From a virus (Duplodnaviria; Heunggongvirae; Uroviricota; Caudoviricetes): 31,920 bases of DNA. Location: IMG/VR virus record IMGVR_UViG_2534681762_000007, one strand, 5' to 3'. Shown piece by piece: positions 1,419 through 31,920 of this stretch. Numbering within the stretch: the first letter of the stretch is position 1; the number at the start of each line of letters is the position of its first letter. The position numbers and the translations under genes are program-made. The notes under the pieces were generated by a model. The model did no database searches, was not told the origin of the DNA, and saw only the letters and a list, made by a program, of their open reading frames with translations.

Positions 1419-2489
1419 TTATTTGATTTCAATTTTGTCCCACTCCCTGCCTCTGTCATCACGATACTGTGATGCCATGGTGTCCGACTTATGCCCGAGA
1501 AGATGTTGAGCAAACTTATCGCTTATCTGCTTCTCATAGAGTCTTGCAGACAAACTGCGCAACTCGTGAAAGGTAGGCGGATCCCCTTCGAAGGAAAGAC
1601 CTGATGCTTTTCGTGCGCGCATAAAATACCTTGATACTGTGCCGGATGAAAGCGGTTCGCGACGAGTAGATGCAATTATGGTTTCTCCGCCAAGAATCTC
1701 TTTGCATTTATCAAGTGTTTCCTTCATTGATATTCCGAGAGCATCAACATGCAATGCTGTTGGGATGGCAATTTTTACGCCTGTTTTGCTTTGCTCGACA
1801 TAAAGATATCCATCTACGATATCAGACCACTTCATTTCGCATAAATCACCAACTCGTTGCCCGGTAACAACAGCCAGTTCCATTGCAAGTCTGAGCCAAT
1901 ATGGTGATGATTCTGCTGCTTGATAAATTTTCAGGTATTCGTCAGCCGTAAGTCTTGATCTCCTTACCTCTGATTTTGCTGCGCGAGTGGCAGCGACAGG
2001 GTTTGTTGTTATATGGCCTTCAGCTATTGCCTCTCGGAATGCATCGCTCAGTGTTGATCTGATTAACTTGGCTGACGCCGCCTTGCCCTCGTCTATGTAT
2101 CCATTGAGCATTGCCGCAATTTCTTTTGTGGTGATGTCTTCAAGTGGAGCATCAGGCAGACCCCTCCTTATTGCTTTAATTTTGCTCATGTAATTTATGA
2201 GTGTCTTCTGCTTGATTCCTCTGCTGGCCAGGATTTTTTCGTAGCGATCAAGCCATGAATGTAACGTAACGGAATTATCACTGTTGATTCTCGCTGTCAG
2301 AGGCTTGTGTTTGTGTCCTGAAAATAACTCAATGTTGGCCTGTATAGCTTCAGTGATTGCGATTCGCCTGTCTCGGCCTAATCCAAACTCTTTACCCGTC
2401 CTTGGGTCCCTGTAGCAGTAATATCCATTGTTTCTTATATAAAGGTTAGGGGGTAAATCCCGGCGCTCATGACTTCGCCTTCTTCCCAT
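1419..2489 (-). CDS. int: Lambda integrase (tyrosine recombinase), apparently intact
   Basis: 356-aa ORF MGRRRSHERRDLPPNLYIRNNGYYCYRDPRTGKEF... matching lambda Int; adjacent to attL; start ATG at 2489..2487. Confidence 0.97.
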   Translation of the reverse strand: MGRRRSHERRDLPPNLYIRNNGYYCYRDPRTGKEFGLGRDRRIAITEAIQANIELFSGHKHKPLTARINSDNSVTLHSWLDRYEKILASRGIKQKTLINYMSKIKAIRRGLPDAPLEDITTKEIAAMLNGYIDEGKAASAKLIRSTLSDAFREAIAEGHITTNPVAATRAAKSEVRRSRLTADEYLKIYQAAESSPYWLRLAMELAVVTGQRVGDLCEMKWSDIVDGYLYVEQSKTGVKIAIPTALHVDALGISMKETLDKCKEILGGETIIASTRREPLSSGTVSRYFMRARKASGLSFEGDPPTFHELRSLSARLYEKQISDKFAQHLLGHKSDTMASQYRDDRGREWDKIEIK

Positions 2490-2623
2490 TTCTGATCCTC
2501 TTCAAAAGGCTACCTGTTACTGGTCGATTTAAGTCAACCTTTACCGCTGATTCGTGGAACAGATATTCTCTTCCATCCTTAACCGGAGGAGGGAATATCC
2601 TGCATTCGGGTAATGACTCCAAC

Positions 2624-3127
2624 TTATTGATAGTGTTTTATGTTCAGATAATGCCCGATGACTTTGTCATGCAGCTCCACCGATTTTGAGAACGACAGCG
2701 ACTTCCGTCCCAGCCGTGCCAGGTGCTGCCTCAGATTCAGGTTATGCCGCTCAATTCGCTGCGTATATCGCTTGCTGATTACGTGCAGCTTTCCCTTCAG
2801 GCGGGATTCATACAGCGGCCAGCCATCCGTCATCCATATCACCACGTCAAAGGGTGACAGCAGGCTCATAAGACGCCCCAGCGTCGCCATAGTGCGTTCA
2901 CCGAATACGTGCGCAACAACCGTCTTCCGGAGACTGTCATACGCGTAAAACAGCCAGCGCTGGCGCGATTTAGCCCCGACATAGCCCCACTGTTCGTCCA
3001 TTTCCGCGCAGACGATGACGTCACTGCCCGGCTGTATGCGCGAGGTTACCGACTGCGGCCTGAGTTTTTTAAGTGACGTAAAATCGTGTTGAGGCCAACG
3101 CCCATAATGCGGGCAGTTGCCCGGCAT
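2624..3127 (-). CDS. insB: IS1 InsB (transposase catalytic part, made as InsAB' by frameshift)
   Basis: 167-aa [67 protein letters not shown]... typical IS1 InsB. Confidence 0.93.
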
Positions 3128-3321
3128 CCAACGCCATTCATGGCCATATCAATGATTTTCTGGTGCGTACCGGGTTGAGAAGCGGTGTAAGTGAACTGCA
3201 GTTGCCATGTTTTACGGCAGTGAGAGCAGAGATAGCGCTGATGTCCGGCGGTGCTTTTGCCGTTACGCACCACCCCGTCAGTAGCTGAACAGGAGGGACA
3301 GCTGATAGAAACAGAAGCCAC
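3046..3321 (-). CDS. insA: IS1 InsA (transposition inhibitor / N-terminal part of transposase)
   Basis: 91-aa [46 protein letters not shown]... typical IS1 InsA with zinc finger. Confidence 0.93.
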
Positions 3322-3486
3322 TGGAGCACCTCAAAAACACCATCATACACTAAATCAGTAAGTTGACAGCATCACCCTGCATTCGCGCACCCATCGACGA
3401 ACTGTTTCAAGGCTTCTTGGGCGTCGCTGGCGAGCGTTCCACTCCTGAAGTGTCAAGTACATCGCAAAGTCTCCGCAATTACACGC

Positions 3487-10502: not shown

Positions 10503-11195
10503 CTACCCATGCTTCCTATACGTCTGCGGCATGCTCCCAATAACCTTACCGAAGATGAACACCCGGTTCATCTCGTCTTTCTCGATCGGGTCCCACGGCG
10601 AGTAGCTCTTGTTATCAGAGATAACCAGCAGCTTATCCTTCATCATTTGCAGACGCTTTACATGGGCTGTGTCGTCGTACAGAAACGCATAGATACCATC
10701 ACCGTCGAAAGATTTAACAGTGATATCAACGAACAGAAGATCACCTGGTTCGATCGTTCCTGACATGCTGTCACCACGTACGTTAATGATGCGGATATTT
10801 TCTGCCTTCCTGCCATCGAACATGTGACGAGCATCGTCAAACGAGTACTCAACCGAGCGTAGAACTTCTACAAACTCACGGTTGATGACTCCCGGCCCGG
10901 CACTCACTTCTATATCAAGAACGTCAATCTTGAAGTATTTGGGATGGTTGGCAGTAGGCTTCCCTAATTGTTGACCGTCATTTCTCATCGGGCCTATGCC
11001 TGATGAGAGCCACTCTGTTCGAACACCCAATGCATTAGCTATTTCAACAATTTTTGTTGAGCCGCGCGCGTTGCCGCTTGTCAGTCTCCAGATTGTGGGT
11101 TGAGCTACGCCAGACGCCTTTGCAAGAGCGCCTTGAGACATTCCAGATTGTTCCATCGCTAGGTTTAAGCGATCAGCAAGAGTTTCTTTTTTCAT
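10503..11195 (-). CDS. CI-type prophage repressor (N-terminal HTH, C-terminal LexA/S24 autopeptidase domain)
   Basis: HTH region LSQGALAKASGVAQPTIWRL; Ala-Gly cleavage site in VSAGPGV; GDSM serine motif and downstream KRL lysine; divergent from a cro-like gene. Start taken at ATG 11195 (MKKETL); in-frame TTG at 11231 is the alternative. Confidence 0.85.
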   Translation of the reverse strand: MKKETLADRLNLAMEQSGMSQGALAKASGVAQPTIWRLTSGNARGSTKIVEIANALGVRTEWLSSGIGPMRNDGQQLGKPTANHPKYFKIDVLDIEVSAGPGVINREFVEVLRSVEYSFDDARHMFDGRKAENIRIINVRGDSMSGTIEPGDLLFVDITVKSFDGDGIYAFLYDDTAHVKRLQMMKDKLLVISDNKSYSPWDPIEKDEMNRVFIFGKVIGSMPQTYRKHG

Positions 11196-11305
11196 AAGTT
11201 TTAATTTATACGCTTGCGTATTGATGGTCAAAACACGTTTTGCTATTGTTATGATTAATACGCATTGCTATTATTTATTCGTTGCAATACCAATAGGAAT
11301 TGATA
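11196..11305. promoter_or_regulatory. OR region between divergent repressor and cro-like genes (PR/PRM and operators)
   Basis: Plus strand -35 TTGATG (11221..11226), 17-bp spacer, -10 TATTGT (11244..11249) facing the cro-like gene; inverted repeat ATACGC-TT-GCGTAT (11208..11221); TTGCTATTG at 11240..11248 is identical to a 9-mer in the PL region. Confidence 0.55.
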
Positions 11306-24459: not shown

Positions 24460-28085
<3,626 letters not shown>

Positions 28086-29405: not shown

Positions 29406-29414
29406 GGGATGTTT

Positions 29415-29747
29415 ATGACGAGCAAAGAAACCTTTACCCATTACCAGCCGCTGGGCAACAGTGACCCGGCTCATACCGCAACCGCGCCCGGCGGGTTGAG
29501 TGCGAAAGCGCCTGCAATGACCCCGCTGATGCTGGACACCTCCACCCGTAAGCTGGTTGCGTGGGATGGCACCACCGACGGTGCTGCCGTTGGCATTCTT
29601 GCAGTTGCTGCTGACCAGACCAGCACCACACTGACGTTCTACAAGTCCGGCACGTTCCGTTATGAGGATGTGCTCTGGCCGGAGGCTGCCAGCGACGAGA
29701 CGAAAAAACGGACCGCGTTTGCCGGAACGGCAATCAGCATCGTTTAA
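29415..29747 (+). CDS. D: Head decoration protein D
   Basis: 110-aa product [110 protein letters not shown] matches lambda D. Confidence 0.95.
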
Positions 29748-29765
29748 CCTGACCCTTCATCACTA

Positions 29766-29789
29766 AAGGCCGCCTGTGCGGCTTTTTTT
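29766..29789 (+). terminator. Intrinsic terminator-like hairpin between D and E
   Basis: Stem GCCGC-CTGT-GCGGC followed by seven Ts (29783..29789). Confidence 0.65.
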
Positions 29790-29802
29790 ACGGGATTTTT
29801 TT

Positions 29803-30070
29803 ATGTCGATGTACACAACCGCCCAGCTGCTGGCGGCAAATGAGCAGAAATTTAAGTTTGATCCGCTGTTTCTGCGTCTCTTTTTCCGTGAGAGCTATCC
29901 CTTCACCACGGAGAAAGTCTATCTCTCACAAATTCCTGGACTGGTAAACATGGCGCTGTACGTTTCGCCAATTGTTTCCGGTGAGGTTATCCGTTCCCGT
30001 GGCGGCTCCACCTCTGAATTTACGCCGGGTTATGTCAAGCCGAAGCATGAGGTGAATCCGCAGATGACCC
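29803..30070 (+). pseudogene. E: Major capsid protein E, only N-terminal ~89 codons; truncated by IS66-family insertion
   Basis: MSMYTTAQLLAANEQKFKFDPLFLRLFFRESYPFTTEKVYLSQIPGLVNMALYVSPIVSGEVIRSRGGSTSEFTPGYVKPKHEVNPQMT matches lambda E; sequence then switches to IS DNA beginning GTAACCGGCTC at 30071. Confidence 0.88.
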
Positions 30071-30123
30071 GTAACCGGCTCATTTAAACCGTCTGGTCTG
30101 TTTCCTCCGGCTCTACAAAAATA

Positions 30124-30801
30124 ATGTCCATCATTTTTAATGGACACTATCGTATGAAACACCGGACCTGGATCACTGAAGCTTTACGTCTTCACTTTGA
30201 AGAACATTTACCCCGGGTTGTGGCCGGGCGTCGCCTGGGTGTACCAAAATCAACAGTTTGTAGTATGTTCGTGCGCTTTCGGAGAGCTGGCCTTTCGTGG
30301 CCTTTGCCCGCAGGCATGTCGGAGCAGGAACTTGATGCCTGCCTTTACGGACAATTTTCCACGGTACCAGTCGTACGTCCTGAAAGCACCGTTATATCCG
30401 AAGCCCCCGTGGTAAAAAACCGTCCCCGGCGGCCCAACTTCCCTTATGAGTTTAAAATCGCCTTAGTGGAGCAGTCACTGCAGCCCGGAGCCTGTGTGGC
30501 GCAGATCGCCCGGGAAAACGGAATCAACGATAACCTGCTCTTCAACTGGCGCCATCAATACCGGAAAGGTGGCCTGCTGCCTTCCGGAAAAAATATGCCG
30601 GCACTGCTTCCCGTGACGTTAACGCCGGAGCCGGATAATAAAATCCCGGCCCCCGCACAGGAACCAGAGCAGATAAATACACCGTCCGACAGTCTGTGTT
30701 GTGAGCTGGTTCTGCCGGCCGGAACTCTCAGGCTTAAAGGTAAACTGACGCCGGCGTTATTACAGACACTTATCCGCGAAATAAAAGGGAGCAGCCACTG
30801 A
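30124..30801 (+). CDS. IS66-family accessory protein TnpA (orf1)
   Basis: ORF containing ...RPNFPYEFKIALVEQSLQPGACVAQIARENGINDNLLFNWRHQYRKGG... typical of IS66 orf1; start uncertain (ATG 30124 or 30154); stop overlaps next ATG (ATGA). Confidence 0.75.
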   Translation: MSIIFNGHYRMKHRTWITEALRLHFEEHLPRVVAGRRLGVPKSTVCSMFVRFRRAGLSWPLPAGMSEQELDACLYGQFSTVPVVRPESTVISEAPVVKNRPRRPNFPYEFKIALVEQSLQPGACVAQIARENGINDNLLFNWRHQYRKGGLLPSGKNMPALLPVTLTPEPDNKIPAPAQEPEQINTPSDSLCCELVLPAGTLRLKGKLTPALLQTLIREIKGSSH

Positions 30802-31148
30802 TGATATCTCTCCCTGCAGGTTCGCGTATCTGGCTGGTTGCAGGTATCACCGATATGCGAAATGGCTTTAACGGCCTGGCATCAAAAGTTCAGAACGTCC
30901 TGAAGGATGACCCGTTCTCCGGACACCTGTTCATCTTCCGCGGACGCCGGGGTGACCAGATAAAAGTGTTGTGGGCTGACAGTGACGGACTGTGCCTCTT
31001 CACCAAACGCCTGGAGCGGGGCCGCTTCGTCTGGCCAGTCACCCGTGACGGCAAGGTGCACCTTACTCCGGCTCAGTTATCCATGCTTCTTGAAGGTATC
31101 AACTGGAAGCACCCGAAACGAACGGAACGCGCTGGAATCCGCATATAA
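30801..31148 (+). CDS. IS66-family TnpB (orf2)
   Basis: 115-aa ORF MISLPAGSRIWLVAGITDMRNGFNGLASKVQNVLKDDPFSGHLFIFRGRRGDQIKVLWADSDGLCLFTKRLERGRFVWP... characteristic of IS66 TnpB. Confidence 0.9.
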   Translation: MISLPAGSRIWLVAGITDMRNGFNGLASKVQNVLKDDPFSGHLFIFRGRRGDQIKVLWADSDGLCLFTKRLERGRFVWPVTRDGKVHLTPAQLSMLLEGINWKHPKRTERAGIRI

Positions 31149-31167
31149 CCCGTTGTAAAGTGAGGAT

Positions 31168-31920
31168 ATGGACACCTCACTTGCTCATGAGAACGCCCGC
31201 CTGCGGGCACTGTTGCAGACGCAACAGGACACCATACGCCAGATGGCTGAATACAACCGCCTGCTCTCACAGCGGGTGGCGGCTTATGCTTCCGAAATCA
31301 ACCGGCTGAAGGCGCTGGTTGCGAAACTGCAACGTATGCAGTTCGGTAAAAGCTCAGAAAAACTTCGTGCAAAAACCGAACGGCAGATACAGGAAGCACA
31401 GGAGCGAATCAGCGCACTTCAGGAAGAAATGGCGGAAACGCTGGGTGAGCAATATGACCCGGTACTGCCATCCGCCCTGCGCCAGTCTTCAGCCCGTAAA
31501 CCGTTACCGGCCTCACTTCCCCGTGAAACCCGGGTTATCCGGCCGGAAGAGGAATGCTGTCCTGCCTGTGGTGGTGAACTCAGTTCTCTGGGATGTGATG
31601 TGTCAGAGCAACTGGAGCTTATCAGCAGCGCCTTTAAGGTTATCGAAACACAACGTCCGAAACTGGCCTGTTGTCGGTGCGACCATATCGTGCAGGCACC
31701 AGTACCTTCAAAACCCATTGCACGCAGTTATGCCGGAGCGGGGCTCCTGGCCCATGTCGTCACCGGAAAATATGCAGACCATCTGCCGTTATACCGCCAG
31801 TCAGAGATATACCGCCGTCAGGGTGTGGAGCTGAGCCGTGCCACACTGGGGCGCTGGACAGGTGCCGTTGCTGAACTACTGGAGCCGCTGTATGACGTCC
31901 TGCGCCAGTATGTGCTGATG
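31168..31920 (+). CDS. IS66-family transposase TnpC (orf3), 5' part only; runs off window
   Basis: Open frame from ATG 31168: MDTSLAHENARLRALLQTQQDTIRQMAEYNRLLSQRV...CPACGGELSSLGCDVSEQLELI...; coiled-coil then zinc-finger as in IS66 TnpC; no stop before window end. Confidence 0.8.
   Translation, partial: MDTSLAHENARLRALLQTQQDTIRQMAEYNRLLSQRVAAYASEINRLKALVAKLQRMQFGKSSEKLRAKTERQIQEAQERISALQEEMAETLGEQYDPVLPSALRQSSARKPLPASLPRETRVIRPEEECCPACGGELSSLGCDVSEQLELISSAFKVIETQRPKLACCRCDHIVQAPVPSKPIARSYAGAGLLAHVVTGKYADHLPLYRQSEIYRRQGVELSRATLGRWTGAVAELLEPLYDVLRQYVLM

Follow-up and report, generated by a model that had tools for sequence, protein, structure and literature searches.

Gene content of the window

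The window (the whole stretch of 31,920 nucleotides analysed here) starts with ybhC (Pfam Pectinesterase), followed by the gene of a lambda-type tyrosine integrase; together we take these to mark the left flank of the phage lambda attachment site. Over its last 12,118 bases the window is identical to the terminal part of contig AQEJ01000005.1 (523,891 bp; assembly GCA_000355115.2) of Escherichia coli ThroopD, a strain that has been included in comparisons of enterotoxigenic E. coli (ETEC) and in which a 92-residue version of the truncated E protein is annotated. The features of the prophage that are discussed below are listed in Table 1. A repressor-like gene looks intact. A gene for a large serine recombinase is present in addition to that of the tyrosine integrase, and a general porin gene, located just upstream of the lysis cassette on the opposite strand, is moron-like cargo.

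Table 1. Coordinates of prophage and insertion sequence features in the window.
Feature	Coordinates	Strand	Evidence or description
Lambda-type tyrosine integrase gene	1419-2489		follows ybhC
IS1, 768 bp, inside xis	2609-3376		9-bp duplication CTGCATTCG at 2600-2608 and 3377-3385
Repressor-like gene	10503-11231		HTH and Peptidase_S24
Large serine recombinase gene, 508 aa	14773-16299	+	Resolvase, Recombinase, Zn_ribbon_recom
General porin gene, 360 aa	19802-20884	-	Porin_1, E = 3.6e-152
B-C fusion ORF, 948 residues	26559-29405		B residues 1-465, 44 out-of-frame residues and the whole of C
Surviving GCGGTGA repeat copy	27948-27954		site of the 55-bp deletion
Head decoration gene D, intact	29409-29747	+	Pfam HDPD, E = 4.1e-22; upstream neighbour of E
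G+C-rich hairpin followed by a T run (GGCCGCCTGTGCGGCTTTTTTT)	29764-29800		terminator-like, between D and E
5' fragment of major capsid gene E, codons 1-89 and first base of codon 90	29803-30070	+	100% identity to lambda gpE residues 1-89; 0 of 268 mismatches against E. coli MS 119-7
Truncated ORF E', 89 E residues and 5 IS-encoded residues (RNRLI)	29803-30087	+	stop TAA at 30085-30087
Predicted 8-bp target site GATGACCC	30063-30070	.	prediction based on the perfect 8-bp duplications that flank four complete ISCro1 copies
Left 1,850 bp of a 2,699-bp ISCro1-type IS66-family element, cut by the contig end	30071-31920	+	near-identity to complete copies
Left terminal inverted repeat, GTAA start	30071-30096	+	identical terminus adjoins the duplications of L001, L034, L035 and L036
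tnpA, 225 aa, accessory protein with helix-turn-helix	30124-30801	+	NCBIfam NF038385 (IS66_access_TnpA); Pfam HTH_Tnp_1
tnpB, 115 aa, IS66 accessory protein	30801-31148	+	Pfam TnpB_IS66, E = 4.7e-40; NCBIfam NF033819 (IS66_TnpB)
tnpC, DDE transposase, first 251 of 523 codons, running off the contig end	31168-31920	+	Pfam LZ_Tnp_IS66, zf-IS66 and DDE_Tnp_IS66

Gene E is broken after codon 89

The ATG of E lies 56 bases past the stop codon of D. Alignment with the intact E of E. coli MS 119-7 revealed that the window diverges from it exactly after position 30070, where the intact gene continues with TGCGTCGCC and the window with GTAACCGGCTC (also given as GTAACCGGCTCATTTAAACC). The sequence-only reading had let the lambda E sequence end at 30070 and the gene be truncated after about 89 codons, and both claims hold to the base. 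The resulting E' ORF has 94 codons. Comparison of its product with the 341-aa major capsid protein gpE of phage lambda (PDB 7vi9 and 7sj5) revealed that (i) residues 1-89 of E' are identical (89/89) to those of gpE; (ii) residues 90-341 of gpE are missing from the ORF, and RNRLI followed by the stop codon stands in their place; and (iii) residues 5-92 of E' align to positions 1-88 of the 329 positions of the Phage_cap_E profile (Pfam, 65.5 bits). A full-length, shell-forming gpE of ~341 aa is absent, the ORF stopping after 94 codons. The terminator-like hairpin between D and E also occurs upstream of the intact E in MS 119-7.

The DNA that follows is the left part of an ISCro1-type element

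Elements of the IS66 family have imperfect terminal inverted repeats beginning with 5'-GTAA and generate an 8-bp target-site duplication. They carry the ORFs tnpA, tnpB and tnpC, of which tnpA and tnpB overlap, and TnpC contains the DDE_Tnp_IS66 catalytic domain. The DNA downstream of position 30070 encodes three consecutive plus-strand ORFs in this IS66 order, and the ATG of tnpB overlaps the stop codon of tnpA in the sequence TGATG (30799-30803). The tnpA product scores 294.7 bits on NF038385, for which the cut-off is 150, and tnpB is identical to that of the complete copy at locus L001. The part of tnpC within the window encodes the leucine-zipper and zinc-finger domains and positions 1-65 of the 284 positions of the DDE_Tnp_IS66 profile. 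Its product scores 169.3 bits, below the 180-bit cut-off of NF033517 (transpos_IS66), because the protein is cut by the contig end; the full-length L001 homologue scores 477.9 bits. The Pfam and NCBIfam profiles thus agree with the earlier claim that IS66-type TnpA, TnpB and TnpC follow E, and the NCBI naming narrows the element to the ISCro1 type, the same DNA being annotated as "IS66-like element ISCro1 family" by NCBI in complete E. coli genomes.

Four complete ISCro1 copies (L001, L034, L035 and L036) served for comparison; each is 2,699 bp long, starts with GTAACCGG and ends with …GAGTCGCTTAC. The element in the window shares with NCBI-annotated ISCro1 the tnpA-tnpB-tnpC order, the overlap between tnpA stop and tnpB start, the GTAA start of the left terminal repeat and 99.3-99.9% nucleotide identity, but only the left 1,850 of the 2,699 bp are present. 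Its left repeat at 30071 agrees with the left repeats of the four complete copies and matches the right repeat of a complete copy at ~18 of 26 positions; its own right repeat lies beyond the contig end. The 1,850 bases differ from the four complete copies by 12-13 mismatches (99.3% identity), 10 of which fall within the last 260 bases of the window (31664-31878), in tnpC. Since copies in other ETEC chromosomes and plasmids are 99.7-99.9% identical to the element over the whole stretch, these clustered differences look like a real ISCro1 subtype and not like noise at the contig end. Compared with the MS 119-7 copy, there are two substitutions in TnpA and one in TnpC.

The boundary of the element is fixed at 30071 by the end of homology to intact E together with the terminus that the duplications define elsewhere. 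Some matches appeared to extend 4-17 bases upstream of 30071, which suggested either an upstream boundary or a target preference. We rejected both: a boundary shift is ruled out by the alignment with intact E and by the four duplication-flanked copies, and the duplications have no motif in common; the apparent extensions arise because ranking by coverage selects for them. A search of the literature on the mechanism of IS66-family elements yielded nothing useful. Gene E of the lambda-like prophage is confirmed to be interrupted after codon 89 by an ISCro1-type element of the IS66 family.

ISCro1 copies in related head gene clusters and elsewhere

ISCro1, named in Citrobacter rodentium ICC168, is the most expanded insertion sequence of C. 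rodentium (PMC3072379), and an insertion of it into the regulatory region of afa has been described in ST131 (PMC8764528). The element of the latter study is given as 2,824 bp, longer than the 2,699 bp measured here for each of the four complete copies. ISCro1 is common in E. coli: the median is 2 places per complete genome and the maximum 25.

The four complete copies lie in or beside the head genes of lambda-like prophages: one in D, flanked by the duplication GGAGGCTG; two at separate sites in C, flanked by CCACAGAG and CAATCAAC; and one between FI and FII, flanked by CGATAACC. The 8-bp duplication is perfect in all four cases, and no motif is common to the four. The closest counterpart of the present locus is the D::ISCro1 prophage of ETEC H10407, MS 119-7 and four other complete genomes, which has the same IS in the same orientation and in the same head-gene cluster. 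This prophage is 99.5% identical to the window over D and E', and in it the IS inactivates a head gene adjacent to E. It differs from the window in that the target is D, with the duplication given above, both IS ends are assembled and E is intact.

Among the 5,426 complete E. coli genomes, 11 carry ISCro1 in the C-D-E-FI region, where independent insertions have hit at least four other sites in the orientation observed here. The search was designed such that only same-orientation insertions are detected, and the uniform orientation of these head-region insertions may therefore reflect selection by the search design rather than a preference of the element.

Simple insertion or rearrangement

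The likeliest history of the locus is that an ISCro1-type element transposed into the E gene of a lambda-like prophage of ETEC ThroopD, which resides beside ybhC at the attachment site of lambda. The element would have inserted after base 268 of E, before base 269, and in the orientation of the late operon. A plain insertion by a DDE transposase would duplicate the 8 bp GATGACCC, and the remaining 253 codons of E would resume directly after the 2,699-bp element. Under such a simple insertion, the right junction is predicted to read …GAGTCGCTTAC-GATGACCC-TGCGTCGCC, that is to say, the right end of the IS, …GAGTCGCTTAC, would join GATGACCCTGCGTCGCC; the synthetic right junction built accordingly would be GGTTCTGACGAGTCGCTTAC-GATGACCC-TGCGTCGCCTGCCGGATGAAG. 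Duplication of GATGACCC would restore the Met88 start codon ATG, so that the 3' part of E would be read as a predicted 254-residue ORF starting with MTLRRLPDED.

The earlier statement that the right end of the IS and the rest of E lie outside the window applies to the source contig as well, which itself stops at 31920, 1,850 bp into the IS, and includes neither. The other five contigs with the same junction end 28-133 bases into the IS, and the right flank of the IS is absent from all contigs that carry the left junction. The end of the window inside the IS is explained by a short-read assembly that broke in a multicopy repeat.

We searched for both junctions in larger collections. Within the 5,426 complete E. 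coli genomes, none covered at least 80% of a 221-bp query spanning the left junction. Eleven complete-genome records that seemed to cover a larger junction query turned out to carry ISCro1 at other sites (in C, in D or at FI/FII) and were discarded. As exact patterns, the left junction was found neither in the GTDB species representatives nor in IMG/VR, and the predicted right junction neither in the JGI metagenomes nor in IMG/VR. The predicted 254-aa 3' E ORF is present in the protein collection (P0150), and 254-aa E fragments are common. As a trace of the right junction these fragments were rejected, since all 24 contigs that could be read (24/24) have a different, unrelated upstream junction, formed with a satellite-like element near codon 81. 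Nine versions of the 254-aa ORF extended upstream into the IS end or the contig edge were absent from the protein collection, an absence that weighs little because the genes in L016 and L017 were called from the ATG despite 24 nt of open frame upstream. Likewise, the failed searches for the right junction are weak evidence because the same collections also lack the left junction; collections without the left junction probably lack this lineage altogether.

These data bear on two rival explanations. A chimeric contig end, in which reads from E were joined to reads from an IS, has in its favour that the contig stops inside a repeat, the kind of place in which most misjoins arise. An identical left junction with the exact 94-aa product, however, is present on six public contigs, namely in 2 NCBI assemblies and 4 Logan run assemblies. 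Because the same junction recurs in contigs from several samples, through independent assemblies and sequencing runs, and lies exactly at the canonical IS terminus, an assembly artefact is effectively refuted.

The more serious rival is a rearrangement, in which ISCro1 entered E or a nearby site first, and recombination between ISCro1 copies or an IS-mediated adjacent deletion then deleted the 3' part of E or moved it elsewhere, perhaps together with the tail genes, so that the right end of the IS now joins unrelated DNA. Consistent with this explanation, neither the right end of the IS nor the duplicate of GATGACCC nor the remainder of E was seen at any point, and no route, by pattern or by protein search, led to the right junction; the left junction occurs in no complete genome, so that both ends are shown in no complete assembly; the prophage has other decay lesions; and ETEC genomes have many ISCro1 copies, at up to 25 places per genome, so that the right flank could have been exchanged by recombination between copies. 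Against it, the failed searches were made in collections that do not hold the left junction either, and the four complete ISCro1 copies in the same neighbourhood are all simple insertions with perfect 8-bp duplications. We consider a rearrangement a minority possibility, to which roughly one chance in five might be given, and a plain ISCro1 insertion into E with an 8-bp duplication the likeliest reading by a good measure, favoured because the four complete copies found in this head-gene cluster in sister prophages are plain insertions without exception.

Satellite-like element joined to truncated E in other genomes

Outside the window, we observed hundreds of E. coli and Shigella contigs with a 5'-truncated E followed by intact tail genes from FI to J (L008-L033). 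The junction in these contigs is near codon 81 of E, ~30 bp upstream of the IS site in the window, and the truncated gene lies directly downstream of a satellite-like element located at tRNA-Arg, beside fimZ (for example, L029 from E. coli IAI39, NC_011750.1, locus coordinates 7884-33500). The satellite-like element encodes an integrase, an Icd-like protein, a D5-type primase, SSB, its own E-like capsid protein (346 aa), a D-like protein and an AlpA-like protein. One variable gene occupies the junction between the satellite and E, encoding TIR, GmrSD plus HEPN, Abi_C, FRG, AF_1680 or a product of unknown type. The boundary between satellite and prophage looks like a defence-gene hotspot. That codons 80-90 of E are a recurrent breakpoint is a highly speculative suggestion, on a par with the decoy role considered below for the E stub.

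Other lesions of the prophage and their order

Two further defects that the sequence-only reading had named, an IS1 in xis and a damaged B gene, were traced to defined events. The IS1 is flanked by a 9-bp duplication, and when the IS1 is removed in silico along with one of the two duplicated 9-mers, a 72-aa Xis is recovered; the exact xis::IS1 junction was found in none of the complete E. coli genomes. The portal gene B is fused to C, which encodes the protease/scaffold, by a 55-bp deletion between two GCGGTGA repeats, of which one copy survives; the deletion moves B into the reading frame of C. This deletion is present in L002, L006 and L007, the source contig included, and in no complete genome, all complete genomes inspected being undeleted.

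The contigs that share the E::IS junction allow the lesions to be ordered in part. In L003, L004 and L005, the gene calls keep B (533 aa) apart from C (439 aa), and in L003 and L005 the E::IS allele is combined with an undeleted 3' region of B that exactly matches the L018 sequence. The insertion in E is thus older than the B-C deletion, since E::IS also occurs in sister contigs where B and C are still intact.

Consequences for the prophage

Lambda cannot assemble heads in the absence of the E protein, and its excision requires Xis. On the basis of this established lambda biology, the ThroopD prophage would be unable to excise normally or to build capsids and particles; without full-length E, the procapsid shell could not form and no particles would be produced. 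A different role could be imagined for the stub of 94 residues (gpE 1-89 plus RNRLI), which might poison the capsid assembly of a superinfecting lambdoid phage and so act as a weak anti-phage decoy. We regard this as very improbable; if true, the stub would be made when a superinfecting lambdoid phage switches on the late operon, and the allele would not be pure debris.

The insertion in E is routine prophage decay, a known element in a known gene, and implies no new biology. It explains where the contig, and hence the window, ends. The ThroopD prophage is defective by at least three independent lesions, whose order is partly given by the precedence of E::IS over the B-C deletion, and its E gene adds one more case of ISCro1 eroding the head genes of lambda-like prophages in ETEC.
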